Positions 7,327 through 60,112 of a stretch of DNA of 64,000 nt are shown here, one piece after another. Each line of letters begins with the position of its first letter. Position 1 is the first letter of the stretch. The notes beneath the pieces are model-generated. The model did no database searches. It worked only from the letters and a program-made list of their open reading frames with translations, and was not told where the DNA came from. The stretch is from Candidatus Omnitrophota bacterium (GTDB lineage Bacteria > Omnitrophota > Gorgyraeia > Gygaellales > Profunditerraquicolaceae), in the NCBI GenBank assembly GCA_041653955.1, contig JBAZEH010000004.1, positions 5,191 through 69,190 of the forward strand. The letters run 5' to 3'. Position numbers and translations under genes: made by a program.

Positions 7327-7881
7327 ATGGTACCGCGTTTGTTGGAAAAATACAGGAATGAGATCATACCGGGAATGATGGAGGCTTTTTCCATCAAGAA
7401 CAAGATGGCTGTCCCGCATCTGGATAAGATAGTCATAAATATGGGTATAGGTGAAGCGTTGCAGGATATCAAGATCCTGGATAAGGCGATGGAAGAGCTT
7501 GCGACGATCACCGGACAAAGGCCCATAGTAAGGCGGGCAAAAAAGGCCATAGCAAACTTTAAGATCAGGAAAGGGCAGGCAATAGGCTGCAAAGTAACAT
7601 TAAGGCGCAAGATAATGTATGAATTTATGGATAGGCTTATAAGCATAGCCTTGCCGCGTATACGCGATTTCAGGGGCGTATCCGCCGATTCATTTGACCA
7701 GGCCGGCAATTACAGCCTGGGGCTTACCGAGCAAGGCATATTCCCGGAGATAGATTATGACAAATTGAGCCGGACGCAAGGTATGGATATAACCTTCGTG
7801 ATAAAAAATTCTAAAAGTAAAGAACAGTCAAAAGAGCTTTTAAGGCTGTTCGGGATGCCTTTCAGCACAGGAGAGGATTAA
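7327..7881 (+). CDS. rplE: 50S ribosomal protein L5 (start taken at ATG 7327, [13 protein letters not shown]; the ORF track's upstream 7297 is unlikely)
   Basis: L5 N-terminus conserved from 7327; that start sits 3 nt after the rplX stop. Confidence 0.93.
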
Positions 7882-7895
7882 ACGAGGATATAAGT

Positions 7896-8081
7896 ATGGC
7901 CAAGAATTCACAGATAGCAAGATGGAAGAGGCCGGCCAAATTTTCCAGCCGCAAGTATAACCGTTGCAGCATCTGCGGCAGGTCGGGAGGTTATTTAAGA
8001 AGGTTTCAGCTTTGCCGTATATGTTTCAGGGAATTGGCGTGGCAGGGGATGATCCCGGGGGTAAAGAAGGCAAGCTGGTAA
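7896..8081 (+). CDS. rpsN: 30S ribosomal protein S14, type Z (zinc-ribbon)
   Basis: 61 aa; CSICG...CRICFRE Cys4 motif. Confidence 0.93.
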
Positions 8082-8111
8082 TAAATAAAACAATAAGGAA
8101 TTGGGGGCAAA

Positions 8112-8507
8112 ATGTCTCGGACTGATCTGATCGCAGATACTTTTACTATGATCCGCAACGCCATTATGGCGAAAAAGGAAAACCTGGATGTACCCGCATC
8201 CAAACAGTTGACCTCTATCCTGGATATAATTAAAAAAGAGGGGTATATAGATAATTTTAAGCTTGTAGACGATAAGAAGCGCGGATACCTTAGGGTATAT
8301 TTAAAGTACGTTATGGGCAAATCCGCGATAAAGAGCATAAAACGGGTATCAAGGCCGGGGTTACGCGTATACGTGAATCACGGGAAGATCCCGCGCGTTT
8401 TAAGGGGTAAAGGGCTTGCGATTATCTCTACCTCTAAAGGCGTTATGACCGATGACGATGCCAGAAAATCAGGATTAGGCGGAGAAGTCATCGGGTATAT
8501 ATGGTAA
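8112..8507 (+). CDS. rpsH: 30S ribosomal protein S8
   Basis: 131 aa; S8 family. Confidence 0.94.
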   Translation: MSRTDLIADTFTMIRNAIMAKKENLDVPASKQLTSILDIIKKEGYIDNFKLVDDKKRGYLRVYLKYVMGKSAIKSIKRVSRPGLRVYVNHGKIPRVLRGKGLAIISTSKGVMTDDDARKSGLGGEVIGYIW

Positions 8508-8521
8508 GAATAGGATAAGAT

Positions 8522-9070
8522 ATGTCAAGGATAGGCAAGAAATCAATAGTTATTCCAAAAGAAGTAAAGGTTGAGGTCACTGACGGGGTAGTTTCAGTTA
8601 CCGGCCCTAAAGGGTCGCTGAAGCTGGCTCTTTCCGGGCGCATATCCGCGGAGGTAAGCGAAGGGCAGGTCATTTTGAAAAGGCCCTCTGATACCAAGCT
8701 GGATAAATCGCAGCATGGCCTTTGCCGCGCCCTGGTATCCAATATGGTCAAAGGCGTCACAGAAGGTTATGTTAAGGAGCTTGAGATAATCGGGGTAGGT
8801 TTCCGCGCGCAGGTGCAGGGAAACACCCTGAGCATGCAGCTGGGTTATTCGCATCCCGTAAATTTCCCCATACCGGAAGGCATAAAGATAGAGGCCCCTA
8901 AAAATACGCAGGTCATAATAAGGGGTATAGATAAAGAAAAGGTCGGAGAGATAGCTGCCGAGATAAGGGCCGCGTATCCTCCTGAACCATACAAAGGCAA
9001 AGGCGTGCGTTATGCCGGAGAATATGTCAAGAAGAAGGTCGGCAAGGCGCAGGCGACAACATCTAAATAA
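8522..9070 (+). CDS. rplF: 50S ribosomal protein L6
   Basis: 182 aa; MSRIGKKSIVIPKEVKV... L6. Confidence 0.95.
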   Translation: MSRIGKKSIVIPKEVKVEVTDGVVSVTGPKGSLKLALSGRISAEVSEGQVILKRPSDTKLDKSQHGLCRALVSNMVKGVTEGYVKELEIIGVGFRAQVQGNTLSMQLGYSHPVNFPIPEGIKIEAPKNTQVIIRGIDKEKVGEIAAEIRAAYPPEPYKGKGVRYAGEYVKKKVGKAQATTSK

Positions 9071-9072
9071 CC

Positions 9073-9435
9073 ATGAAAAAAAAGAAAGAGATAGTAAGGA
9101 ATAAAAGGCATCGGCGCATACGCATGCGTATGTTCGGCACGCAGGAACGCCCCCGCCTTATTGTGCACCGTTCCCTGAAGAATTTCTCCGCTCAGATCAT
9201 AGATGATACGGACAGCAGGACGATATTCTCATTATCCACGCAGGATAAGGAGATAAAAGACAAGTTTGCTTCTCCCGGAAATGTCAAGGCTTCGGAGTTT
9301 TTCGGGGAGGTTTTTGCGAGGAAGGCTAAAGAAAAAGGCGTAAGCAAGATCGTATTTGACCGCGCCGGTTACCTCTATATGGGGAGGGTCAGGGCTTTTG
9401 CCGACGCATTAAGAAAAGGCGGATTGGAGTTCTAA
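9073..9435 (+). CDS. rplR: 50S ribosomal protein L18
   Basis: 120 aa; L18 family. Confidence 0.93.
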
Positions 9436-16569: not shown

Positions 16570-17745
16570 ATGCGAATAGATATCAGGATAGCGAAACGTC
16601 TCGAAAAGATAAATCCTTCCTCGACCCTAGCAATAACCGCTAAAGCCAAGAAGTTAAAGTCAGAAGGCCGTGATATAGTTAATTTTGCTGCGGGTGAGCC
16701 TGACTTTGACACTCCCGATTTCATAAAGGAGGCCGCTATAGCGGCGATAAAGGGTGGATTTACCAAATATACGCCCTCTACCGGCACCCCGGAATTAAAA
16801 AAGGTAATCTCCGAGAAATTCCACAGAGATAATTCACTCGAATACGACCCGTCTCAAATAGTCGTATCCTGCGGCGCCAAACACAGCATATTCAACGCCT
16901 TATTAGTGCTTATAAACAAGGCTGATGAGGTCATAATACCTTCTCCTTACTGGGTGAGCTATCCGGAGATGGTTAATTTGTGTGAAGGTAAGGCGCGCTT
17001 CATAAAAACCATCCCTGAAAACGGATTTAAGATGACAGCCGGGGAGCTGGAAAAGAATATCACCCCCAAAACCAAAGTATTGATATTGAACAGCCCCTCT
17101 AACCCCACCGGATGCGTTTATACCCGCGACGAGCTTGAGCGGATCGCCGGCATATGCGCGGCAAAGAAGATATTCATCATAAGCGACGAGATATACGAAA
17201 AGCTCATATATGACGGCGGAAAACACGTTTCTATAGCTTCTTTGAGCAAGGATATTTATAATCTCACCGTTACCGTTAACGGCCTTTCTAAAAGCCATTC
17301 AATGACCGGATGGAGAATAGGTTATCTGGCGGCCCCCGCGGACGTTACTGCCGCGATATCCAAGGTCCAGGACCATTCTACCTCTAACCCGGTATCCATC
17401 AGCCAGAAGGCGGCCGTAGCCGCGTTAAGCTCAAGCGATGATTTTTGCAGAGAGATGGCTTCCGAATTCCAGAAGAGGAGGGATTACGCATTAGAAAGGC
17501 TCGGCAGGATCAAGAAAATTTCTTTTATCAAACCGCAGGGGGCATTTTATATTTTCTGCGATATCTCAAAGAGCGGGCTTGATTCTTCAACTTTCGCGGG
17601 CCGGCTCCTTGAGGAAACCTATGTAAGCATTATCCCGGGCGAAGGGTTTGGCGTTGACAATTATGTGCGCATAAGCTTTGCCACCGGCCTTGAACGCATA
17701 GAAAAAGGAATGGACAGGATAGAGGATTGGGTAAACAAACTATAA
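16570..17745 (+). CDS. PLP-dependent aminotransferase class I (aspartate / aminoadipate type)
   Basis: 391 aa; SKSHSMTGWRIGY PLP-lysine motif. Confidence 0.9.
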   Translation: MRIDIRIAKRLEKINPSSTLAITAKAKKLKSEGRDIVNFAAGEPDFDTPDFIKEAAIAAIKGGFTKYTPSTGTPELKKVISEKFHRDNSLEYDPSQIVVSCGAKHSIFNALLVLINKADEVIIPSPYWVSYPEMVNLCEGKARFIKTIPENGFKMTAGELEKNITPKTKVLILNSPSNPTGCVYTRDELERIAGICAAKKIFIISDEIYEKLIYDGGKHVSIASLSKDIYNLTVTVNGLSKSHSMTGWRIGYLAAPADVTAAISKVQDHSTSNPVSISQKAAVAALSSSDDFCREMASEFQKRRDYALERLGRIKKISFIKPQGAFYIFCDISKSGLDSSTFAGRLLEETYVSIIPGEGFGVDNYVRISFATGLERIEKGMDRIEDWVNKL

Positions 17746-17749
17746 TAAT

Positions 17750-19003
17750 ATGAACGGGACTATAGCGGAAAAAATATTGAGCGCTCATTCAGGCAGGAAA
17801 CTCAGCGCCGGGGATCTTGCCATATGCAAGGTAGATTTTTCCTTTGGGCAGGACGGGACTTCATCAATAATCATAGATAGGGTGAGGGATATGGGGCTCA
17901 AAGAGCTAAAAACTAAATTCTGCATGGTTATTGACCATAGCGCCCCATCCCCAAGTGAAGGCGTGTCCCGCGTCCATAAGAAGATGCGCTCATTCAGCTC
18001 TGAATATGACGCTCCCCTTTACGATATAGGCTGTGGAGTCTGCCATCAGGTAATACCTGAATCCGGAGAGGTCCTCCCCGGGAACCTGGTCTTGGGGGCT
18101 GACTCGCATACCTGCACTTACGGAGCCCTGGGTGCCTTTGCTACAGGCGTAGGTTCAACAGACCTGGCGATCAGCTTAGCTGCCGGGAAGAACTGGTTCA
18201 AGGTCCCCGAGACGATAAAGATAATAGTGAACGGCAGGATACCTAAAGGGGTATCAGCAAAGGATATCATCCTGCATATAATTACCGATGTGACCGCAAG
18301 CGGCGCCACTTACAAGGCGATAGAATTCAGCGGCAGCGCGATAGATAAGCTGGGTATGGACGGCCGTTTCACCATATGCAATATGGTAGTAGAGATGGGA
18401 GCGAAATGCGGTTTTATGCCGCAGGATAAGAAGACTACCTCCTGGCTTAAGTCAAGGGGCGTAAAGAATAGTAAGATAAAGCCGGTAAAGGCGGACAGCT
18501 CGGCGAAATACATAAAGACAATAGAATATAATATTTCAAAGCTTTGCCCGCAGGTATCAAGGCCCCATAGCGTGGATAGCGCAGTAGCGGCCGCGGAACT
18601 GGGTAATATAAAAATAAATGAAGCGTTTCTAGGCACCTGCACTAATGGCCGCCTTGAAGACCTTAGGGCGGCAGCAGCCATGCTTAAATCCAGAAAAGTC
18701 TCGCCCGCAGTAAGGTTTATCATTGCGCCGGCTTCGCGCGCCATATTCCGTGAGGCATTAAGATCAGGTATCGTGGATATTTTTATTAAGGCAGGGGCTG
18801 TAATGGTCTCTCCCGGTTGCGGGCCGTGCGTCGGTACCCACAACGGGGTTCCCGCAGACGGTGAAGCGGTCATATCCACCGCTAACAGGAACTTTAAAGG
18901 CAGGATGGGCAACCCTAATGCCTTCATTTATCTTGGGTCTCCTTTGACGGTCACCGCCTCGGCTATAAAAGGGCGTATTACCGACCCAAGAGAACTCTTA
19001 TAA
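17750..19003 (+). CDS. aconitase-family large subunit, LeuC/homoaconitase type (about 417 aa)
   Basis: Aconitase-family catalytic region (GVCHQ, ADSHTCTYGA); Fe-S cluster Cys ligands at TCTNGR and SPGCGPCVG. Confidence 0.85.
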   Translation: MNGTIAEKILSAHSGRKLSAGDLAICKVDFSFGQDGTSSIIIDRVRDMGLKELKTKFCMVIDHSAPSPSEGVSRVHKKMRSFSSEYDAPLYDIGCGVCHQVIPESGEVLPGNLVLGADSHTCTYGALGAFATGVGSTDLAISLAAGKNWFKVPETIKIIVNGRIPKGVSAKDIILHIITDVTASGATYKAIEFSGSAIDKLGMDGRFTICNMVVEMGAKCGFMPQDKKTTSWLKSRGVKNSKIKPVKADSSAKYIKTIEYNISKLCPQVSRPHSVDSAVAAAELGNIKINEAFLGTCTNGRLEDLRAAAAMLKSRKVSPAVRFIIAPASRAIFREALRSGIVDIFIKAGAVMVSPGCGPCVGTHNGVPADGEAVISTANRNFKGRMGNPNAFIYLGSPLTVTASAIKGRITDPRELL

Positions 19004-19017
19004 TCCAGGAGGTTGAT

Positions 19018-20064
19018 ATGGAAATACGCAGTCTGCTCGTGCTATGTATAGAGAAAAATGCTTCTGACCTGCATTTAACGGAAAATGAGCCGCCGATATT
19101 GCGCATTGACGGCAAGCTTGTCCGCACGCAATTACCTCCTTTAACCAGGGATGACTTAAAGATGCTGGCATACAGCGTTTTAAGTAATAGCCAGAAAGAA
19201 ATGCTGGAGAGGGACCTTGAGCTGGATTTCTCCGTGGCTCTCCCCGAATTAGACAGGTTCAGGGTCAATATCCATATTCAGAAGGGTTCGGTAGAGTCGG
19301 CTTTCAGGAGGGTCCCTTTGCAGATACCGAGCATAGAACAACTGGGGTTGCCTAATATAGTCCTGGAACTCGCCCGAAGGCCGAACGGCCTAGTGCTGGT
19401 GACCGGGCCTACGGGTATGGGTAAAACCACTACCCTGGCGGCGATGATAAACCTGATAAATAATGAGAAGGAATCCCTGATAATTTGTATTGAAGACCCG
19501 ATAGAATTCATACACGCAAACAAAAAAAGCATAGTTAAGCAAAGGGAAGTTTACGCTGACACCCACTCTTTTGCCCAGGCATTAAGGCATGCGTTAAGGC
19601 AGGACCCGAATGTGATAGTAGTAGGGGAAATGAGGGATTTAGAAACTATAACAACGGCTCTTACCGCCGCTGAAACAGGCCATCTTGTGCTGGCAACCCT
19701 TCATACTCCGGACGCCCCGCAGACCGTAGAAAGGATAATAGATGTATTCCCTCCCTATCAACAGCAACAGGTAAGGCTGCAGCTGGCGAACTGCCTGCAG
19801 GGGGTAATATCGCAGTTATTATTGCCTTCAGCCACAGGAAAAGGCAGGGTGCTGGCTACAGAGATAATGCTCGGCACATCTGGCATAAGAAATCTTATTC
19901 GCGAACAAGAGATAGAACAGATACCTACCCTTATGCAGACAGGGAGCCAATACGGCATGAAGACAATGGATAAATCCTTAAAGGAGCTTTATCAGAAAGG
20001 GCTTATCGGCCTTGACGTAGCGATGTCCAGGGTAAAAAGCAACGAGGAGTTCCATCAGCTATGA
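19018..20064 (+). CDS. pilT: type IV pilus retraction ATPase PilT
   Basis: 348 aa; Walker A GPTGMGKTTT; PilT-type Asp box and His box. Confidence 0.9.
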   Translation: MEIRSLLVLCIEKNASDLHLTENEPPILRIDGKLVRTQLPPLTRDDLKMLAYSVLSNSQKEMLERDLELDFSVALPELDRFRVNIHIQKGSVESAFRRVPLQIPSIEQLGLPNIVLELARRPNGLVLVTGPTGMGKTTTLAAMINLINNEKESLIICIEDPIEFIHANKKSIVKQREVYADTHSFAQALRHALRQDPNVIVVGEMRDLETITTALTAAETGHLVLATLHTPDAPQTVERIIDVFPPYQQQQVRLQLANCLQGVISQLLLPSATGKGRVLATEIMLGTSGIRNLIREQEIEQIPTLMQTGSQYGMKTMDKSLKELYQKGLIGLDVAMSRVKSNEEFHQL

Positions 20065-20561
20065 AGATAGAAGGCACCGGAGTAAGATTAGGGGATAATA
20101 TAAATACCGATTTTATCATTTCGGGCAGGTATAAGTTTTCCATAACAGATATGAAGGAGCTCTCCAAGCATATTATGGAGGATATAGACCCTGATTTCCC
20201 GAGCAAAATAGTATCCGGGGAATCCATAATTGTGGCGGGAGATAATTTTGGCATGGGCTCATCGCGGGAGCAGGCGCCGCTGGTGATCAAAGAGTGCGGG
20301 ATCCAGGCGGTATTAGCCAAGTCATTCGCCCGCATATTTTACCGTAACGGTTTTAATATAGGCCTGCTTCTAATAGAGACCGATACCGATAAGATAGGCG
20401 AAAATGACAAACTCTTTATAGATACCGATAAAGGCATGGTCAGGAATATTACCAGGAATATAGAGATGAAAATAAACCCCCTGCCCGGTTTTATGCAGGA
20501 GATATTGAAAGAGGGCGGGATAGTCAACTATTTTAAAAAACACGGGGAGTTAAAAATATAA
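20061..20561 (+). CDS. aconitase-family small subunit (LeuD-like swivel domain)
   Basis: 166 aa; [14 protein letters not shown] motif; ATGA overlap with pilT. Confidence 0.85.
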
Positions 20562-20562
20562 C

Positions 20563-21648
20563 ATGCCTATTCACAAAATAACTTTAATACCGGGGGATGG
20601 GATAGGGCCGGAGGTTGCGGAAGCCGCGAGGAGATGTGTTGAGGCAACCGGTGTCAAGGTAGATTGGGATACTGTTGTCGCGGGGCAGGAGGCCATAGAT
20701 AAATACGGGAATATACTTCCCGAAGGCGTCCTTGAGTCAGTCAGGAAGAATAAGGTCGCGCTGAAAGGGCCGATAGTCACACCTATCGGAGAGGGTTTCC
20801 GTTCGGTTAATGTTGCTATAAGGCACGCCCTTGACCTGTACGCCTGCGTGAGGCCGGCAAAATCTTATCCCGGGGTAAGAAGCCCGTATAAAGATATAGA
20901 CCTTTTGATCGTGCGCGAGAACAGCGAGGACCTTTACGCCGGCATAGAATTTGAAGAAGGCAAGCCGGAAACGAAAAAACTAATATCCGAGATAGAGGCC
21001 GGGACAAAAAAGAAGATACGCCCTGATTCCGGTATTTCCATAAAACCTATATCCAGGTACGCTTCCGAGAGGATAGTGCGTTTTGCCTTTGAGTATGCCG
21101 TCAAATACGGGCGCAAGAAGGTCACGGCCGTGCATAAGGCGAATATCATGAAATTCACCGACGGGCTGTTCCTTAAGGCGGCGCGCGAGGTCGCAAAAGA
21201 ATATGCCGGCAGGATAAATTTTGAAGAAGCGATAGTGGACAATATGTGCATGCAGCTGGTGCAAAAACCGAGGAACTACGATATACTCGTGCTGCCCAAC
21301 CTTTACGGCGATATAATATCAGACCTTTGCGCGGGCCTTGTAGGAGGACTTGGCGTGGCCCCGGGAGCGAATATAGGCGATGATATGGCGGTATTTGAGG
21401 CGGTGCACGGTTCAGCCCCCAAATATAAAGGGATGAACAAAGTAAACCCGGTAGCGATGATATTATCAGGGGTGCTGATGTTAAGGCATATAAAAGAAGA
21501 TGCCGCGGCCGATAAGCTGGAAGGCGCGGTAAAGAAAATCCTCGCTGAAGGTAAATACGTAACATATGACTTGAAGGCCGACCGCGATGACCCTTCCAGC
21601 GCAGGGACGCGCGAGATGGCTGACGCTATTATAAAAGAGATAAGATGA
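20563..21648 (+). CDS. NAD-dependent isocitrate/homoisocitrate dehydrogenase (beta-decarboxylating dehydrogenase family)
   Basis: 361 aa; ALKGPIVTP...[19 protein letters not shown] resembles NAD-IDH more than LeuB. Confidence 0.8.
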
Positions 21649-22580
21649 AAATATCCGTGATAGGCGCGGGAAATGTAGGCGGTTTAACCGCTATGCGGCT
21701 GGCTGAAACAGGTATCGGCGAGATACTCCTGGTGGATATAGCCAAAGGCCTTGCTCATGGCAAGGCGCTGGATATGGAGGATAGCGCTTCGGTCATGCGG
21801 TTTAACTATAGCATTCTGGGCACGGATGATATGGAGCAGGTAAAAGGCTCGGACATAACCGTCATCACCGCCGGATTAGCCCGCAAGCCCGGGATGACCA
21901 GAGAAGAGCTGCTTGTCAAGAACGCCGGTATATTAAAAGATGTGTGCCTGAAAGTCAGGGGACTCTCCCCGGATTCAATAGTGATAATAGTGACTAATCC
22001 CCTGGATATAATGACATACCTGGCTTTAAAAGTAACGGGGTTTCCTTCAAGCAGGGTTATCGGGATGGGTGTAAGCCTGGACGCGGGGAGGTTCGCTAAT
22101 CTTATCAGCCGCGAATTAAGAATGCCTTATACTGATATTGAGGCGTGCGTTATAGGCAGCCACGGAGAAGGGATGTTGCCTTTGCCGCGGCTTACTACCG
22201 TAAAAGGCGTTGAATTAAATGAGCTCCTTACCGAAGAGGCGGTAAACACCTTAACCAGGAGGACGCGGGAACGCGGCATTGAGATAGTCTCCGCGCTTGG
22301 AAGCGGAAGCGCGTATTTCGCCCCTTCACAGGCAATAGCCGCGCTCGTTAAGGCGATAGCAAAAGATACCAAATCCACTATCGGGGTATCCGCTTGCCTT
22401 AACGGAGAGTACGCCGAAAAAGATATATGTATCGGCGTGCCATGCCGCCTGGGCAGGAACGGCATAGAAAAAATAATAGAACTTGAATTGAACGAAGAAG
22501 AGAAGGCGCTTTTCGCGCAGGCAGCCGGCTCTATCCGCAAGAACTTAGAATTAATCAAACAGTTTTATCATGGATTATGA
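21645..22580 (+). CDS. mdh: malate dehydrogenase (LDH/MDH family)
   Basis: 311 aa; [13 protein letters not shown] Rossmann fold; overlaps the upstream gene by 4 nt. Confidence 0.88.
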
Positions 22581-23880
22581 CCTGGCGGTAATAGGCGCTG
22601 GCTGGGCAGGCTTTAATTCCGCGCTAAAGGCAAAGGCGCTTGGCTTAAAAGTCGCGCTGATAGAAAAGGAACAAATAGGCGGAACATGCCTTAATCGAGG
22701 ATGCATCCCCGCCAAGGCGCTTATCCAATCCTCCAGGGTTTACAATCTCGCCAAAAGATCCGGCATATTCGGCGTAAAGGCCGCTGAGCCGGAAATAGAC
22801 CTCGCGCAGATACACTCAAGAAAAAACAAAATAATAGAGCAATTACGGCAGGGTATGTCTTTTTCCCTTCGGGGGATAGACCTGTTGAGCGGGGAGGCCC
22901 GCATAACCGGCAGCAATACCTTAAGGGTCGGCGCAAAAGATATCAGCTCCAGGTTTATGCTTATAGCAACCGGCTCAAAGCCCGCGCAGCTTAAAGGGAT
23001 AAGATTTGACGCAGATAAGATCGTATCCAGCGACGATATGCTGGCATCAGAGAGCGTCCCGGGCTCCCTTTTGATCATAGGCGCGGGAGCGATCGGCTGT
23101 GAGTTCGCTAACCTGTTTGCGTCGTTCGGTTCTAAGGTCACTATTGTTGAGATGATGCCGCAGCTGCTTCCCGGCATAGATAAGGAAGCCGCCAGGAAGG
23201 CAGAGGCCGCTTTTAAAAAGAAGGGTATTGAAGTAGTAACATCTGCCGACGCTAACAGGTTTGACCTGTCACGTTACGATAAGGTGCTGCTTTCTGTGGG
23301 CCGCTCTGCTGTTACCGAGGGGCTGGGCCTGGAGCAACTCGGCATAAAAACTGAAAAAGGGATGGTTATCGTTGACGATTCGCTTAAGACCAGTATACCG
23401 AATATATACGCGGCAGGCGACTGCGCGAGCAGGATAATGCTCGCGCATTTTGCCGCTTATCAGGGTTGTATCGCCGCCGAAAATATGGCAGCAGGGCCCT
23501 CGGGAAACCTCAAAAGATCGGATGAGCGCTGCGTGCCGGCCTGTATATTTACGGAACCCGAGATAGGGGCAGTTGGGCTGACTGAGGATGAAGCAAAGGA
23601 AAGAAAAATAGATATAAATGTGAATAAATTTGATCTCCTGGGTTCCGGCATGGCCCGCATAATGGATGAGGCAAACGGCTTTATAAAAATAATATCGTTT
23701 AAAGGCACCGAAGAGGTGGCCGGCGCTTCCATAGTAGGGCCGCGGGCAGCGGAATTAATAGGGATACTTGCCGTAGCCGTGCAATCCCGCCTTAAAACCT
23801 CTCAGATAAGGGATACTATATTCGCGCATCCCACACTCTCCGAAGGGATAATTAGCGCATTAAAAGGGTATGGAGTTTGA
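22570..23880 (+). CDS. lpdA: dihydrolipoyl dehydrogenase (E3)
   Basis: 436 aa; GGTCLNRGCIPAK redox-active disulfide; FAD and NAD folds. Confidence 0.92.
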   Translation: MDYDLAVIGAGWAGFNSALKAKALGLKVALIEKEQIGGTCLNRGCIPAKALIQSSRVYNLAKRSGIFGVKAAEPEIDLAQIHSRKNKIIEQLRQGMSFSLRGIDLLSGEARITGSNTLRVGAKDISSRFMLIATGSKPAQLKGIRFDADKIVSSDDMLASESVPGSLLIIGAGAIGCEFANLFASFGSKVTIVEMMPQLLPGIDKEAARKAEAAFKKKGIEVVTSADANRFDLSRYDKVLLSVGRSAVTEGLGLEQLGIKTEKGMVIVDDSLKTSIPNIYAAGDCASRIMLAHFAAYQGCIAAENMAAGPSGNLKRSDERCVPACIFTEPEIGAVGLTEDEAKERKIDINVNKFDLLGSGMARIMDEANGFIKIISFKGTEEVAGASIVGPRAAELIGILAVAVQSRLKTSQIRDTIFAHPTLSEGIISALKGYGV

Positions 23881-24508
23881 GGTATTTGATTTAGGATTAA
23901 CGGGTTTTGAGGAAGCGCTGCGTTTCCAGAAGGAATTATTCAGCAGGGTAAAAGCGGGCGCGCTTAACGGTGCCCTGGTGCTTTGCAGCCATCATCCTGT
24001 AATCACAACAGGAAGGCGCGCGAAAGCAGGAGCTATCCTGGTTTCTGATATTGAACTGGAACGCCGCGGTATACCCGTATATCAAACTGAAAGGGGAGGG
24101 GAAGTTACTTATCATGGCCCGGGCCAGCTTACTTTATATCCGGTCATCAACCTTGGCCGGTTAAAGAAAGATATACGCTATTTTTTAAGGGAGCTGGAAG
24201 GCTCGGCGATAGATATGCTCTCTGAACTTGGCATCAAAGGGTCAAGGCGCGGCCGCCTTACCGGGGTATGGGTAGAAGGGCGCAAGGTGGCTTCAATAGG
24301 GATAGCCGTGAGGAATTGGATCACCTTTCATGGCATGAGTATAAATATAAAGAAGGACGATTTAAGCAATTTCCGGCTTATCAGGCCATGCGGTATGGAT
24401 ATACGGATGACTTCAGTTGAAACGGTTTCAGGCAGGAGCATAGATATGGCGCAGGTAGGCGCTATGCTCACGGATGGGCTCAAGAAAAGATTCTCAACGG
24501 TTAACTAA
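23870..24508 (+). CDS. lipB: octanoyltransferase LipB
   Basis: 212 aa; LipB family with the conserved Cys and RRG region. Confidence 0.85.
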   Translation: MEFEVFDLGLTGFEEALRFQKELFSRVKAGALNGALVLCSHHPVITTGRRAKAGAILVSDIELERRGIPVYQTERGGEVTYHGPGQLTLYPVINLGRLKKDIRYFLRELEGSAIDMLSELGIKGSRRGRLTGVWVEGRKVASIGIAVRNWITFHGMSINIKKDDLSNFRLIRPCGMDIRMTSVETVSGRSIDMAQVGAMLTDGLKKRFSTVN

Positions 24509-24522
24509 AGGAGGCCGCCAAT

Positions 24523-24753
24523 ATGACTAACGTAATCTTACCTGAATTGGGAGAAGGTATCATAAAAGCGACTATTTCCTACTGGTATTTCAAGGAAGGG
24601 GATAAGGTCAATGAAAAGGATGATCTAGTCGAGCTCGCTACGGATAAGGCCACATTTAACCTGCCCAGCCCCTGCGCGGGGGTCCTTTCGCAGATAGCAT
24701 TTAAAGAAGGGGATGAGGTAAATGTTGGTGAGGTGCTTGCCGCTATAGAATGA
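24523..24753 (+). CDS. standalone lipoyl-attachment domain protein (76 aa)
   Basis: ELATDKATFNLPSPCAGVL matches the E2 lipoyl-lysine (DKA) motif; no E2 catalytic domain follows. Confidence 0.75.
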   Translation: MTNVILPELGEGIIKATISYWYFKEGDKVNEKDDLVELATDKATFNLPSPCAGVLSQIAFKEGDEVNVGEVLAAIE

Positions 24754-27526: not shown

Positions 27527-28174
27527 ATGGTAGAAGAGCAGCTGTTGCCGCGCGGGATAAGCGACCCCGGGGTAATAGATGCTTTCTATAAAATAGAGCG
27601 CCACCTGTTCGTACCGGAGAAGGGGAGGGTGAGCGCTTACGCTGATTTTCCTGTTCCTATCGGGGAAGGGCAGACAATATCACAGCCCTATATCGCAGCT
27701 TTAATGACCGAATCTCTGGGATTAACAGGCAAGGAGAAGGTCCTTGAAGTAGGCACAGGCTCCGGATACCAGACGGCTATATTAGCGGAGCTGGCAGGAG
27801 AGATATACAGTATAGAGAGGATCAGGCAGTTAGCTGAAAAAGCAGGCAAGACCCTTGCCGGGCTTGGGTATAAGAATATAAAAATAAAAAATGATGACGG
27901 GGCGCTGGGCTGGAAAGAGGCCGCGCCATTTGACAGGATAATTATAACCGCGGCAACCCCCAGGATACCCGCGCCGCTTATTGAACAGTTGGCTGATAAC
28001 GGAAAGCTGATATTGCCTCTGGGGGAGAGTTTCAGCCAGGTTTTGACATTAGTAGAGAAGAAGGAAGGAAAGCTGGAGCATAAAAATATCTGCGGCTGCG
28101 TCTTCGTCCCCCTAATATCTAATAGGGACACCCCTTCTGCCAAAGCTAAGGGTGTCCCCAGAGATGAGAAATGA
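27527..28174 (+). CDS. pcm: protein-L-isoaspartate O-methyltransferase (alternative GTG start at 27500)
   Basis: VLEVGTGSGYQTA SAM-binding motif. Confidence 0.88.
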   Translation: MVEEQLLPRGISDPGVIDAFYKIERHLFVPEKGRVSAYADFPVPIGEGQTISQPYIAALMTESLGLTGKEKVLEVGTGSGYQTAILAELAGEIYSIERIRQLAEKAGKTLAGLGYKNIKIKNDDGALGWKEAAPFDRIIITAATPRIPAPLIEQLADNGKLILPLGESFSQVLTLVEKKEGKLEHKNICGCVFVPLISNRDTPSAKAKGVPRDEK

Positions 28175-28668
28175 GCGATTTAATAATAAACTGGTTAAAT
28201 GGTGTTCCTAAAGAATATGTAGTCTTGCTTTTAGGGGCGCTGCCTATATCGGAATTAAGAGGCGCCATACCACTCGCCCTTTCATTCGGGTTTCCGCTGT
28301 ATAAGGCTTACTGGTTATCTGTCGCCGGTAATCTTATCCCGGTTATCCCGTTGCTTTTTTTGCTTGAGCCCGTATCCAGCAGGTTAAGAAAATTCAAGGT
28401 ATGGTCGCGTTTCTTTGACTGGCTCTTTGAGCGGACAAAGCGCAAGGCAGAAACAGTGCAAAAATATGAAGCATTAGGCCTGGCTTTATTTGTTGCTATA
28501 CCCCTTCCGGTAACAGGGGCATGGACCGGCATAGTAGCGGCATCTTTATTCAAGATAAGGTTCAGGTACGCGTTTATCGCCATAGTATGCGGGGTTTTGA
28601 CAGCAGGGTTGATAGTCTCTGCGCTATGCGCGCTGGGGATGATAAGCTGGAGGGCTATATCCCAATGA
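28171..28668 (+). CDS. small polytopic membrane protein (COG2426-like, putative small export protein)
   Basis: 165 aa with four hydrophobic segments; call from family resemblance only. Confidence 0.5.
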   Translation: MSDLIINWLNGVPKEYVVLLLGALPISELRGAIPLALSFGFPLYKAYWLSVAGNLIPVIPLLFLLEPVSSRLRKFKVWSRFFDWLFERTKRKAETVQKYEALGLALFVAIPLPVTGAWTGIVAASLFKIRFRYAFIAIVCGVLTAGLIVSALCALGMISWRAISQ

Positions 28669-29168
28669 TACACGTATATACCGGTAACGGCAAAGGAAAG
28701 ACTACCGCGGCGCTTGGAATGGCATTAAGAGCCGCGGGGGCGGGGCTTAAGGTATATATCTGTCAGTTCGCTAAAGGGAGGAGCTACAGCGAGCTACGCT
28801 CATTAAAAAAACTCAAGAATATAAAGATAGAGCAGTTTGGAACCACCTGTTTTATCAGGAGAAAAGCAGGCAGGAAAGATATAAAATTAGCGCAAGATGG
28901 ATTAAGGCATGCAGAAAAAGCGATACGCGGCGGGAAATATGATATGATAGTATTGGATGAGATCAATATCGCCCTGCATCTTGGCCTCTTGGTAAAAAAA
29001 GATATCCTGGGGGCCATGAAAGCGGCCCCGGCAAGAATAGAATTGGTGCTTACCGGGCGCTACGCGCATCCTGAAGTCATCAAAGCCGCTGACCTGGCGA
29101 GTGAAATAAAAGAACTGAAGCATTATTATAAAAAAGGCGTAAAAGCGAGAAGAGGGATAGAGTTTTAA
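28665..29168 (+). CDS. cobO: cob(I)yrinic acid a,c-diamide (corrinoid) adenosyltransferase CobO/BtuR type; start at MIHVYTGNGKGKTTAA
   Basis: P-loop GNGKGKTTAA with CobO-family conservation; ATGA overlap with the upstream gene. Confidence 0.85.
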   Translation: MIHVYTGNGKGKTTAALGMALRAAGAGLKVYICQFAKGRSYSELRSLKKLKNIKIEQFGTTCFIRRKAGRKDIKLAQDGLRHAEKAIRGGKYDMIVLDEINIALHLGLLVKKDILGAMKAAPARIELVLTGRYAHPEVIKAADLASEIKELKHYYKKGVKARRGIEF

Positions 29169-33105: not shown

Positions 33106-34032
33106 ATGTCTTTGGCGCTTTCTACCTCCTGGAACGCGTTTCGTTACACCGAGGGTAACGGCCTGGTATCAGAGATAAAAGAGCTCGGCTTCAAAGAAAT
33201 AGAGTTAAGCTTCAATCTCACCGAAAATCATATAAAAGATATTGAGAAGGATACCGGGGATAACCGGATGCGGGTCACCAGCGTCCATAATTACTGCCCC
33301 ATCCCGGAAGGCCTGAAACGCGAAGAGGCCCTTCCTGACTGTTTCTCTATGTCTTCCATCAAAGAGGAGGAGCGCAAGGAGGCCGTCAAATATACAAAGA
33401 ACAGTATAGACACGGCCAGGCGCCTTAACGCCAGGGCAGTTGTATTGCACTGCGGGAGGGTGGAAGTCAAGGACAGGACAAGGGACCTGATCAATCTTTA
33501 CGAAAGGGGCCTTAAAGACTCCGAGAGGTTCAAGAAAATAAAGGAAGATATGACAAATACCAGGTCTATCTTCCGCGCCCCCTTCCTGGATAAGGCGCTA
33601 AAAAGCCTTGAAGAGCTGGATCGCTACGCCAGGGAACAGGATATTTTGCTGGGAGTTGAGACGCGTTTTTATTACCGCGAGATCCCATCTAAAGAAGAGA
33701 TAGGCGTGATCCTGGATGAATTTAAAGGATCCAACATATTCTATTGGCATGATACAGGGCATGCCCGGGTGATGGAAAACCTGGGTTTTGCTTCCCGCGA
33801 TGAATATTTGCAGTTATACGGCGGCAGGATGATAGGCGTGCACCTGCATAATGTAAAGGGATGCGATGACCACCAGGCACCTTCTGACGGAGAATTGTCT
33901 TTTGATACCCTGAAACCTTACCTGAAAGAAGATACCCTGAAGGTAATAGAGGCGCATCACCCCGCTACGGCAGAACAACTGAAAGAAAGCAAGAGGTCCC
34001 TGGAAACACTTTTAAATGGCAACCCCAGATAA
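33106..34032 (+). CDS. xylose-isomerase-like TIM-barrel protein (sugar-phosphate isomerase/epimerase family)
   Basis: 308 aa; family resemblance only; substrate unknown. Confidence 0.65.
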
Positions 34033-34840
34033 GATAAGGCGCCCCGCGGTAGCAGGACAATTTTACCCTTCATTAAGAGGGGAGTTAATAAAGCAGATAA
34101 GTTCTTTTATAGACAATAAGGCCCGCAAGCAGGATATTATCGCCTGCGTATTGCCTCACGCCGGATATATATATTCCGGGGCAGTAGCAGTCGAAACCCT
34201 ATCAAGGGCCGAGGTCAAAAGCAGGGCTATACTTTTAGGCCCCAACCATACCGGCTATGGGGCAAGATACAGTATAATGACAGAGGGTTCCTGGCAGACC
34301 CCGTTAGGGACAGCCAGGATAGATACCTATCTGGCAGGCAGAATAGCAGAAAGCTCTGAATATCTTGAGGCGGATGAAGGCGCGCATGAACATGAGCACT
34401 CCCTTGAGGTAGAGCTTCCGCTTTTGCAGTATTTTAAAGAAGATATCCGGATAGTCCCCATCATCTTGATGCCGGGTGAACTTACCGCTCTTAAAGATAT
34501 AGGCAGGGGCATAGCCGAAGCTATCATTAAAGATAAGGCAAGAGAAGAAATATTGATAGTGGCCAGCTCCGATATGACCCACTACGAGCCGCAGGAAGAA
34601 GCAGAGAAGAAAGATAGGGAAGCCATAAAAGCTATACTTGAATTAGATGAGGAGGGGCTGATGGAGAGTGTCGCGCGGCTTAATATATCAATGTGCGGAT
34701 ACGCTCCTGTAATAACTATGATCTCAGCGGCTAAAGCGTTGGGGGCTAAAAAGGCCGAACTCATCAGATACCGGACCAGCGCGGATATCACCAAAGACAA
34801 AAGCAGCGTCGTAGGTTACGCGGGAATGATCATATACTGA
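34016..34840 (+). CDS. Memo-family protein (AmmeMemoRadiSam system protein B)
   Basis: 274 aa; N-terminal VAGQFYP motif with the conserved His/Asp pattern; 17-nt overlap with the upstream gene. Confidence 0.85.
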
Positions 34841-37411: not shown

Positions 37412-37873
37412 ATGAATATAAAAGAGATAAAAGAACTGATAAACATCATGAACGAAAACGGGCTGATGGAGCTGGAAATAGAAAAGGACGGTATGCGCGT
37501 CAGGCTGAAAAAAGCGGGCCAGGAACAGGAGGCTTCCGCGGGCCAGACCATAGTCATAGAAAAGTCCGGCATTCCGTCGGTTAATACAGCGGCGGAAGCA
37601 CAAAGAGGCGCGGAAAAAGCGCCTCTGGCCAATGCAGCAGAGATAAAGTCCCCCATGGTAGGGACATTTTATCGCGCCCCTTCTCCGGAATCTCCTCCAT
37701 ACGTAGAGGTAGGCCAGGTAATAGAGCCGGGCCAGGTTATTTGTATCTTAGAAGCAATGAAATTAATGAATGAGATAAAATCCGAGATAAAAGGGAAGAT
37801 ATTGGAGGTCCTTGTAGACAATACCGAGCCCGTAGAGTTCGGGCAGCCGATCTTCCTGGTAGAGCCTCTTTAA
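37412..37873 (+). CDS. accB: biotin carboxyl carrier protein
   Basis: 153 aa; EAMKLMNEI biotinylation motif. Confidence 0.93.
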
Positions 37874-56141: not shown

Positions 56142-57095
56142 ATGTATCCTGCGTATTTAGAATCATATAATAACGGCAAACTCGCCCGCCTCGTAGAAGA
56201 GGCATACGGGCTCCTTGAGTCCTGCCGTATATGCCCGCGCCTTTGTAAAGTGAACCGCCTGAAAGACGAAAAAGGTTTCTGTAAAACAGGCCAAAGGATA
56301 AGGGTGTGCAGTTTTATGGCCCACCATGGAGAAGAGCCCCCGATATCGGGAGAGCGCGGTTCAGGGGCTGTATTTTTCTCGGGGTGCAATATGGCATGCT
56401 CCTATTGCCAGAATTTTGAATTCAGCCAGTCAGGGGAAGGAAAGGAAGTTGAGCCCAAGGTACTGGCAGGTTTTATGCTGCAACTGCAGAATAATGGGTG
56501 CCACAATATAAACCTGGTCACCCCTACCCATATTATGCCGCAAATATTAAAAGCCCTTGCTATTGCTATACCCGGGGGCCTTAATATACCGCTCGTCTAT
56601 AATACCGGAGGATATGAGCTCCCCGAGATGATCAGGCTGCTGGAGGGTATAGTGGATATATACCTTCCTGATATGCGCTACGCGGGCAATCAGGAGGCGC
56701 TTAAATATTCTTGCGCTCCCGATTACCCTAAATACAACCAGGAAGCGTTAAAGGAGATGCACAGGCAGGTAGGAACAGCCAGAATCGGCGCTAACGGGAT
56801 CATAAAAAGAGGCCTGGTCATAAGGCATCTGGTCCTGCCGGAAAATATATCCGGCACCACTAAAATAATGAAATTCATAGCAGAGGAGCTCTCAAAAGAT
56901 ACATATATAAGCCTTATGAGCCAATATTCCCCGTATTATAAGGCAAAGGCGCTTGAGGGGCTCGCCCGCCGCGTTACAGCCAAGGAATATGAGAGCGCGA
57001 AGAATGCAATGGAGAAATACGGGCTGCACAATGGGTGGACGCAGGAAGACGGAGGGTTAGAGCGGTTCGCGGGCACCAATATAAAACCGATATGA
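56142..57095 (+). CDS. AmmeMemoRadiSam-system radical SAM enzyme (PFL-activase-like)
   Basis: CNMACSYCQN CxxxCxxC motif; family N-terminus. Confidence 0.82.
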   Translation: MYPAYLESYNNGKLARLVEEAYGLLESCRICPRLCKVNRLKDEKGFCKTGQRIRVCSFMAHHGEEPPISGERGSGAVFFSGCNMACSYCQNFEFSQSGEGKEVEPKVLAGFMLQLQNNGCHNINLVTPTHIMPQILKALAIAIPGGLNIPLVYNTGGYELPEMIRLLEGIVDIYLPDMRYAGNQEALKYSCAPDYPKYNQEALKEMHRQVGTARIGANGIIKRGLVIRHLVLPENISGTTKIMKFIAEELSKDTYISLMSQYSPYYKAKALEGLARRVTAKEYESAKNAMEKYGLHNGWTQEDGGLERFAGTNIKPI

Positions 57096-59009: not shown

Positions 59010-59363
59010 ATGAGGAAGTTGTCGGCAGCACTGTTGGTAGCGGTCTTCTTATTTTCAGCAGTTTCTTTATTATGCGCGCAGGAGAAGACGCCGGATGAGA
59101 TAGTCGCTATAGCGGTTGAAGCGGTAAAAGGGCAGGGAGTAGAAGTTGAAGACGCCAAGATAATCTATGATGAGGGCGGCCAGCTCTGGAGCAGGGAAGT
59201 AGGGTATATGATAGAAGAGGATGCCTCCCCTAACCACGGGATCCTAAAGAGGGGTTTCCTGAAGAATTACAGGATAGTAATGTTTGATCTTGAAGAGCCG
59301 GCTACTGATATATGGGTATTCATTGATAAGGATACCGGAGACGTGCTTGAGATCTCCAGGTAA
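59010..59363 (+). CDS. secreted PepSY-like small protein
   Basis: Signal peptide; PepSY-like fold, guessed from size and pattern. Confidence 0.45.
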   Translation: MRKLSAALLVAVFLFSAVSLLCAQEKTPDEIVAIAVEAVKGQGVEVEDAKIIYDEGGQLWSREVGYMIEEDASPNHGILKRGFLKNYRIVMFDLEEPATDIWVFIDKDTGDVLEISR

Positions 59364-59375
59364 GCGAGAAAGAGT

Positions 59376-59412
59376 TAAAAGGGCCGGGTTCATTTATCCG
59401 GCCCTTTTAAAA
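59376..59412 (+). terminator. Rho-independent terminator
   Basis: aaagggccgg-gttcatttat-ccggcccttt followed by an A/T run. Confidence 0.7.
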
Positions 59413-59427
59413 TAAAAAAGGTTACTT

Positions 59428-59745
59428 ATGAAATTATTACCCGTCATCATATTTATCATAGTAATAGTCGTAGTATGGCTGGCCCGCAGCGTAAAGGCGG
59501 GGAAGGCGCAGATCCTCTCGGATGAAAGAAGGCAAAAAGAGCGCCTTGAGGCAGAAAAGAGGAAGAACCGCCTGGCAGAAAAAGATATGCTTGAGCAGAA
59601 GGAGTTAAGCAAACACCGCTCAGAGGTCTTTGAGGCAGAACGTAAGGCTTCGGAAGAGAGGAAAATCAGAGAAGACGAATTAAGGCGCAAGATAGCGGAA
59701 AGAAAGAAACACGCGCAGGAAGAGCAGAAGCAAAATGGACTATAA
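59428..59745 (+). CDS. single-TM protein with a highly charged (K/E/R) coiled-coil tail
   Basis: 105 aa; hydrophobic N-terminus then ERRQKERLEAEKRK... Confidence 0.5.
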   Translation: MKLLPVIIFIIVIVVVWLARSVKAGKAQILSDERRQKERLEAEKRKNRLAEKDMLEQKELSKHRSEVFEAERKASEERKIREDELRRKIAERKKHAQEEQKQNGL

Positions 59746-60112
59746 TATGGTTATACTGGTAAGGCTGCTGGGGGCAGCTATAGCGGCTTGTTCTATCATA
59801 TATCTGATAAACCCGGAGGCTATGAAAAAATATATGCTTTTCTGGATAACGGGGAGAATGATCTTCGCCGGGGCTATCCTGGCTATTTCAATAGGCATTA
59901 TCCTCCTGATTGCCGCCCCGCGATGCCGGCTTGCCTGGTTTGTGAACCTGATGGGTTTTCTGTCAATTATCAAGGGGCTCTATATTTTTACCTTCGGGCA
60001 AAAAAGCCTGACATCTATGCTGAACTGGTGGATATCAAAACCGGCGGCGGCACTGCGTATAGTCGCCATCCTGGAATTGGCGCTGGGCATACTGTTCATA
60101 TACTCCGCGTAA
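59735..60112 (+). CDS. small polytopic membrane protein, unknown
   Basis: 125 aa; three to four TM segments; overlaps the upstream gene. Confidence 0.5.
   Translation: MDYNMVILVRLLGAAIAACSIIYLINPEAMKKYMLFWITGRMIFAGAILAISIGIILLIAAPRCRLAWFVNLMGFLSIIKGLYIFTFGQKSLTSMLNWWISKPAAALRIVAILELALGILFIYSA

Follow-up and report, generated by a model that had tools for sequence, protein, structure and literature searches.

A conserved dihydrolipoyl dehydrogenase, LipB and free-standing E2-type lipoyl domain in Omnitrophota: a candidate NADH-linked dithiol shuttle

The DNA analysed here (the window) is a 64,000-nucleotide stretch from Candidatus Omnitrophota, order Gygaellales. At positions 22570-24753 it carries three closely packed genes for a dihydrolipoyl dehydrogenase (E3), an octanoyl(lipoyl)transferase (LipB) and a small protein consisting of a lipoyl domain (LD). 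All three open reading frames (ORFs) lie on the + strand and encode 436, 212 and 76 amino acids, respectively. The features of the locus are:

22570..23880, + strand: dihydrolipoyl dehydrogenase (E3, Lpd), 436 aa; TIGR01350, Pfam Pyr_redox_2 and Pyr_redox_dim
23870..24508, + strand: LipB octanoyl(lipoyl)transferase, 212 aa; TIGR00214, PF21948; start overlaps the E3 stop by 11 nt
24509..24515, + strand: Shine-Dalgarno-like AAGGAGG, read from the sequence, 7 nt upstream of the LD start codon
24523..24753, + strand: free-standing E2-type lipoyl domain protein (LD), 76 aa; PF00364; gapless alignment to 1lab and 2l5t

The E3 gene overlaps both the preceding malate dehydrogenase (MDH) gene and the LipB gene by 11 nt, stop codon included. 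The original prediction, made from the DNA letters, had given these overlaps as 10 nt; the 14-nt gap that it gave between LipB and LD was the same on re-measuring. Its identification of all three genes was correct, as judged from profile scores and active-site residues.

E3 scores 442 bits against TIGR01350 (lipoamide_DH) and is thus above the equivalog threshold of 408.8. The redox disulfide is C40-LNRG-C45, the FAD motif GAGWAG is located at 9-14 and the NAD fold shows GAGAIG at 171-176 together with the NAD-type Glu194. A His420-Glu425 dyad, contained in HPTLSE, and the dimerisation domain (PF02852) are also present. The closest relatives in the PDB are the Thermus (2eq6) and Geobacillus (1ebd) enzymes. 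Disulfide and His-Glu motifs are retained throughout 82 orthologues, and the E3 of the window is, judging by these residues, canonical with an intact active site. The FAD fold opens the protein at residue 3; there is no fused N-terminal lipoyl domain, LD being encoded by a separate downstream gene. In one related locus (L080:7819-9323) the E3 orthologue aligns as two pieces, 7819-8961 and 9087-9323; the gene may be frameshifted or misassembled in this metagenome-assembled genome (MAG). LipB (147.4 bits against TIGR00214, cut-off 83.55; 2e-41 against PF21948) possesses the catalytic residues Lys139 and Cys174, the latter in the PCG motif. These are retained in most orthologues, and the LipB of the window appears intact.

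LD matches PF00364 with 67.7 bits (cut-off 22.1). The lipoyl-lysine is Lys42 (nt 24646-24648) within the motif TDKATFN, and it is invariant in 84 out of 84 distinct orthologues. In both NCBIfam and the PDB, LD best matches the N-terminal lipoyl domains of E2 proteins and not biotin carriers; the top PDB sequence match, 9y7v_D, is a 553-aa pyruvate dehydrogenase (PDH) E2p that has two lipoyl domains in its N-terminal part. The AlphaFold model (pLDDT 88) is all-beta, and the folds most similar to it are again E2 lipoyl domains (TM 0.8-0.97). The protein consists of the lipoyl domain alone, with no linker, peripheral-subunit-binding domain or catalytic domain, and is followed by a 134-nt spacer and a glycosyltransferase gene. 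The profile search that had been proposed for this protein returned Biotin_lipoyl (PF00364) only, and none of the GCV_H models matched.

Two explanations for so small a protein, either of which would have refuted the original prediction by its own account, were checked, and both could be ruled out. The first is a biotinyl domain, which would carry the motif MKM. LD has T-D-K42-A-T instead, the E2 lipoyl models score far above those for biotin carboxyl carrier protein, and a genuine AccB with EAMKLMN is encoded separately in the window (37412-37873). The lipoyl nature claimed in the original prediction is thus upheld by the DKA motif, the PF00364 match and the E2-type best relatives. The second is the N-terminus of a complete E2, split off by a frameshift. 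The protein ends at residue 76 with no PF00198 domain, the stop codon is kept in the 84 distinct orthologues, the genes downstream of LD differ between genomes, and tblastn across all frames of the related DNA (1.37 Mb) found no E2 catalytic domain. Cys51 (24673-24675), in the turn SPC(S/A)G, occupies a position at which classical lipoyl domains have Val, Gln or Ala. Of the 84 distinct orthologues, 64 share this cysteine, and its candidature as a second redox residue was dropped on finding Ala or Ser in 17 others. It is therefore unusual, but not essential.

In NCBI, the identical LD sequence is assigned to a Candidatus Omnitrophota MAG. In public annotation LD is called a ‘lipoyl domain-containing protein’ or, wrongly, an E2 of PDH or of 2-oxoglutarate dehydrogenase (OGDH). 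The JGI names of the 76-aa protein (‘PDH/OGDH E2 component’) are misleading in the same manner.

For a species survey, one genome per species was scanned for LD relatives. These were found in 206 genomes, and the 80 best loci are nearly all labelled as Omnitrophota. Several records titled ‘uncultured Planctomycetales’, ‘Patescibacteria group’ or ‘Margulisiibacteriota’ show the full Omnitrophota-specific synteny and are probably taxonomic mislabels (L015, L022, L030, L032, L035, L037, L038, L044, L050, L073, L084, L090). Gene order was counted in the 73 species-level loci with enough upstream sequence. E3 is directly upstream of LD in all 73, with LipB between the two in 59. The remaining 14 species (L027, L029, L048, L050, L057, L061, L065, L066, L068, L071, L073, L074, L076, L078) have E3 abutting LD without LipB, at a distance of 16-145 nt. 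Because of these 14 species, the conserved core is the pair of reductase and carrier. The co-occurrence of the trio, suggested as a check beforehand, thus recurs across species, and its arrangement is not due to chance. In single species, unrelated genes are inserted within the trio, and these were looked at as partner candidates. They encode an IS200-like transposase (L018:8741-9331), a 533-aa polytopic membrane protein (L023:7746-9347) and a secreted protein (L060:9082-9762), and were discarded as uninformative given these identities. In one metagenomic lineage (L009:10001-10237, L010:53-289) LD stands alone after a mechanosensitive-channel gene, 7 kb from LipA and with no E3 or LipB nearby.

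The median identity to the window is 81.5% for RpoA, 76.6% for the isocitrate-type dehydrogenase (IDH), 73.7% for LD, 56.0% for E3 and 54.0% for LipB. LD is 67-84% identical across 86 loci; it is under strong purifying selection and is the most constrained of the three. Such conservation in a small protein suggests docking with several partners. The LD family is tight and lineage-specific; it has 1360 short homologues and forms one 50%-identity cluster. Searching 1.84 billion representative proteins for free-standing LD relatives was uninformative, giving a list filled by multi-domain E2s with summed scores, in which the sole short representative was P0137 (79 aa).

These data bear on the idea that the trio is an evolutionary leftover, the remains of a dehydrogenase complex that has been lost, and serves no function today. 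The reduced genomes and the fragmentary tricarboxylic acid (TCA) cycle of the lineage (2026 preprint) would agree with it. We nevertheless regard it as very improbable given the retention of all catalytic residues in the 82 E3 and most LipB orthologues, the level of LD identity together with the invariant Lys42, the strong ribosome-binding site and the overlapping, tightly packed reading frames. From the pattern of conservation, the E3-LipB-LD module is clearly functional.

The enzymes that lipoyl domains usually serve were searched for around the trio. The Pfam scan covered the window genes between 16.5 and 60.6 kb, and the translations of the entire window were read in addition; PilT (19018-20064) and three small ORFs (59010-60112) were read as translations only. 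Neither an E1, an E2 catalytic domain nor GcvT, GcvP or GcvH was found in the window in this way. Moreover, 52 multi-domain E2 proteins were used as tblastn queries against the window and 93 related loci (the 1.37 Mb mentioned above). They matched LD genes only, apart from a single LD-E3 fusion query that also matched E3 genes. The statement of the original prediction that E1, E2 core and GcvT/P are missing near the trio is upheld by both approaches.

An E1 and an E2 core could be encoded elsewhere in the genome. The trio would then represent E3 plus the detached lipoyl arm of a complex of the PDH, branched-chain 2-oxoacid dehydrogenase (BCKDH) or acetoin type, with free LD shuttling between E1 and a lipoyl-less E2 core as the H-protein does in glycine cleavage. 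Several features agree with this. As a lipoyl domain, LD is typical of the E2p/E2b type: it contains the PxLGEG loop recognised by E1 enzymes, and no gaps are needed to align it with the E2 domains of Geobacillus and Thermoplasma. E3 is fully canonical, and the operon context is one of TCA-type metabolism. The genome inventories discussed here cover, among E1/E2 genes, those of OGDH, which likewise leaves room for a complex of the PDH or BCKDH type. However, the window and the 93 related loci contain no E2 core. We know of no arrangement in which E2 cores are devoid of any lipoyl domain, and a complex of this kind would itself be unusual. Published Omnitrophota reconstructions take pyruvate to acetyl-CoA via pyruvate:ferredoxin oxidoreductase. 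In addition, a set of 176 complete genomes of Omnitrophota, which includes 64 from Gygaellales, has OGDH E1/E2 in 0, IDH in 165 and MDH in 166 (2026 preprint). Altogether, we consider a split complex doubtful; PDH-type E1/E2 may be absent from these genomes.

Glycine cleavage is the other system to be considered. According to Table S5 of Seymour et al. 2023 (PMC10066038), 27 out of 49 Gygaellales species have E3 (K00382) without GcvP/T/H. Among them are UBA1562, 2-01-FULL-41-12, RBG-13-41-10 and O2-12-FULL-51-8, and UBA1562 is the best-matching LD locus. About nine Gygaellales species, such as SURF-25 and Amyimicrobium, possess the full glycine cleavage system and E3; in other orders of the phylum, glycine cleavage genes occur in the absence of E3 (PMC10066038). 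The lineage of UBA1562, 2-01-FULL-41-12 and SURF-25 appears as Velamenicoccia / Gygaellales / Profunditerraquicolaceae, corresponding to Koll11; GIF10; UBA6249 in GTDB. SURF-25 (L061) is also the one LipB-less member that was checked in Table S5, and its glycine cleavage system is complete.

The E3 of the trio might accordingly be the L-protein of glycine cleavage, LipB a general transferase and LD an accessory substrate without a function of its own. SURF-25, Amyimicrobium and UBA6233 have GcvPA/PB, GcvT, GcvH and a single E3, which must therefore be the one in the cluster. This speaks for such a role, but the 27 species that keep E3 without GcvP/T/H, UBA1562 included, do not, nor do the other orders that carry glycine cleavage genes without E3. 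Furthermore, E3 always adjoins LD and never gcv genes, and the supposed accessory, LD, is the most conserved of the three. As a full account of the trio this is unlikely.

Lipoylation of LD would require the insertion of sulfur by LipA. No LipA is present in the window, within the scope of the translations and Pfam scan given above. A radical SAM gene at 56142-57095 was ruled out as a candidate; it matches no LipA model and the LipA motifs are missing. Proteins named LipA are, however, numerous and widespread in the phylum. On the L009 contig, where LD stands alone, the LipA 7 kb upstream of it scores 327 bits against TIGR00510 (cut-off 310). A second conserved cluster holds LipA in the order Trx, Pta, Ack, DJ-1, PanD, Def, LipA, TrxB, PEPCK. 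TrxB (TIGR01292, 378 bits) comes after LipA in L092:8001-9780, L093:4615-6376, L091:8001-10052 and L009:1984-3962, and in L092 and L093 the two genes have 8 nt in common. Since LipA occurs in Omnitrophota, the route via LipB and LipA to lipoyl-LD is open in the phylum. With LipB adjoining and LipA present in the lineage, LD is presumably lipoylated in vivo.

The adjacency of ligase and carrier genes in 59 out of 73 species could also be taken to indicate a lipoyl relay or store. LD would first accept octanoate or lipoate and then pass on or buffer the cofactor, in the way of GcvH in Bacillus or GcvH-L in Staphylococcus, and carrier-mediated lipoyl transfer has precedent (PMC12440151). On the other hand, LipB-type enzymes act on lipoyl domains directly, no LipL- or LipM-type amidotransferase is linked to the trio, and the inventoried recipients, GcvH and E2o, are missing from many relatives. 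It is E3, not LipB, that is the invariant partner of LD, given the 14 species without LipB in the cluster. The relay that the original prediction had put forward is not favoured here, as there is no linked LipL-type amidotransferase and most close relatives are without GcvH or E2o; we judge it improbable.

The explanation we favour is that the trio constitutes a self-contained, NADH-linked dithiol shuttle of a lipoyl protein that serves a putative acceptor, and we would give it a probability of about 0.45. According to this model, LipB would move octanoate from octanoyl-ACP onto Lys42 of LD, and LipA, encoded elsewhere, would add the two sulfurs. The NAD-type E3 would then interconvert lipoyl-LD and dihydrolipoyl-LD with NAD+/NADH. 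The bacteria are fermentative and mostly anaerobic, and many of them are without glycine cleavage and OGDH; in these, NADH would keep the free carrier LD reduced. Dihydrolipoyl-LD could in turn act as a thioredoxin-like donor to one or more acceptors, of which a thiol peroxidase or some other enzyme with a disulfide would be examples. In species with glycine cleavage, the same E3 would probably double as L-protein. We infer both the direction of the electron flow and the existence and nature of the acceptor.

A small redox shuttle is plausible because, of the systems that usually depend on lipoate, two have been lost by close relatives, which kept the trio. The pair of E3 and LD persists with or without glycine cleavage. 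The original prediction had named a redox shuttle or minimal lipoyl system as an option, and this part of it fits both the conservation pattern and the published inventories, from which we infer it. A more far-reaching version would hold that no classical lipoate-dependent complex is left in the Gygaellales group of Omnitrophota and that E3-LipB-LD together with LipA work alone as an NADH-driven, thioredoxin-like shuttle. This is possible, though tentative.

Several observations weigh against a shuttle. The genomes also contain an ordinary pair of thioredoxin and TrxB, and with this in place there is no obvious need for another system that reduces disulfides. Genes for AhpD, AhpC, Ohr or OsmC-like proteins were found neither among the scanned window genes nor in the conserved operon. 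The operon neighbours of the trio, IDH, MDH and an aminotransferase, belong to central carbon metabolism, not to stress defence. The full glycine cleavage system of SURF-25 and Amyimicrobium (PMC10066038) provides E3 with an ordinary role. Finally, the inventories of KEGG Orthology (KO) assignments rest on incomplete MAGs and threshold-based annotation, so that E1/E2 of the PDH, BCKDH and acetoin types may yet be present in these genomes.

In the usual view, lipoate serves five multi-enzyme complexes as their swinging arm. With the E2 lipoyl domains of these, such as those of Geobacillus stearothermophilus E2p (1LAB), Thermoplasma E2 (2L5T) and Mycobacterium tuberculosis DlaT, LD shares the fold, the DKA lipoyl-lysine hairpin and the PxLGEG loop (35-43% identity, with Lys42 aligning without gaps to 1LAB). 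It differs in being a whole protein of 76 aa, without linker, peripheral-subunit-binding domain or acyltransferase core, and in having no E1/E2 nearby. The glycine cleavage system is set apart by the lack of GcvH (PF01597), GcvT or GcvP with E3 in the window. A lipoyl domain coupled genetically to E3 alone, as in the trio, is known from LD-E3 fusions such as Neisseria P64k (1GJX, 1OJT, 5U25), and a 719-aa protein with two lipoyl domains fused to E3 (P0229) was found in this analysis. In Omnitrophota, however, LD has a gene of its own downstream of the E3 gene, in most cases with LipB in between. The studied organisms with LD-E3 fusions also possess complete complexes.

To our knowledge, the free lipoyl carriers described so far (LbpA, GcvH-L) are all relatives of the H-protein. 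The new element here is therefore a free carrier of the E2 type rather than of the H-protein type. LbpA of the sHdr sulfur-oxidation system is a lipoyl redox carrier outside the classical complexes (PMC6067878), GcvH-L of Staphylococcus aureus is a free lipoyl carrier with a non-classical role (PMC12440151), and a carrier is predicted for the LarG and E3 pair of Pelobacter carbinolicus (PMC3543383). Like LD, these are small free lipoyl proteins, often with their own ligase gene. Unlike LD, which matches PF00364 only, they belong to the H-protein family (PF01597), and LD has no linked genes of the Hdr-like, SirTM or Act kind.

In the M. tuberculosis Lpd-DlaT-AhpD-AhpC system, electrons pass from NADH via E3 and a lipoyl domain to a thiol peroxidase. 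This system and the lipoyl-dependent Ohr peroxidase, itself a precedent for lipoyl redox chemistry (PMC5962072), perform chemistry of the kind proposed for the trio. Their lipoyl domain is, however, part of a full E2 that also serves a dehydrogenase complex, whereas LD is free, and no AhpD, AhpC or Ohr gene occurs near the trio among the scanned window genes. Literature on Omnitrophota mentioning lipoyl or lipoamide yielded no description of an E3-LipB-LD module.

The trio closes a conserved operon of aminotransferase, aconitase-family subunits, PilT, IDH, MDH, E3, LipB and LD. The genes preceding the trio are:

16570-17745, + strand: aminotransferase (Pfam/NCBIfam)
17750-19003, + strand: HacA/LeuC-type aconitase-family large subunit (Pfam/NCBIfam)
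19018-20064, + strand: PilT-like ATPase (read as translation)
20061-20561, + strand: aconitase-family small subunit (Pfam/NCBIfam)
20563-21648, + strand: isocitrate-type dehydrogenase, IDH (Pfam/NCBIfam)
21645-22580, + strand: malate dehydrogenase, MDH (overlaps E3 by 11 nt)

This upstream string (16570..22580, + strand) is syntenic across >60 Omnitrophota loci. The wider gene order in relatives, metagenome contigs included, is S4, RpoA and L17, followed by the operon from aminotransferase to LD. Promoter and terminator scans of the operon gave results no better than those with shuffled sequence. The PilT-like ATPase gene splits the genes for the large and small aconitase-family subunits (17750-20561), an arrangement that is likewise kept in >60 Omnitrophota loci. 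The ‘aconitase’ of the window belongs to the two-subunit homoaconitase / isopropylmalate-isomerase family, scoring above the TIGR01343 and TIGR02087 cut-offs, and the ‘IDH’ scores below every equivalog cut-off. The pair could act on homocitrate-type substrates instead of, or besides, citrate.

Further along the window, the ORFs for a small multidrug export family protein (28171-28668) and a CobA/CobO adenosyltransferase (28521-29168) share 148 nt. For CobO, the match to Pfam begins at residue 49, and the true start is probably an internal Met near residue 47. AmmeMemoRadiSam B (34016-34840), which lay outside the Pfam scan and was matched by NCBIfam TIGR04336 (314 bits), and the non-LipA radical SAM gene mentioned above (56142-57095) are 21 kb apart.

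If the trio indeed is an autonomous shuttle, no E2-type lipoyl domain before LD would have been shown to be an independent redox carrier protein. The module would then represent a new minimal lipoyl redox system which, composed of three small soluble proteins, would be an easy experimental target. It would also be a warning that KO-based pipelines label LD as the E2 of PDH or OGDH, labels that can yield false-positive PDH/OGDH complexes in Omnitrophota reconstructions. In the organisms themselves, strong selection has maintained a detached lipoyl domain of the E2 type beside its reductase, across a lineage with small genomes that is possibly host-dependent.

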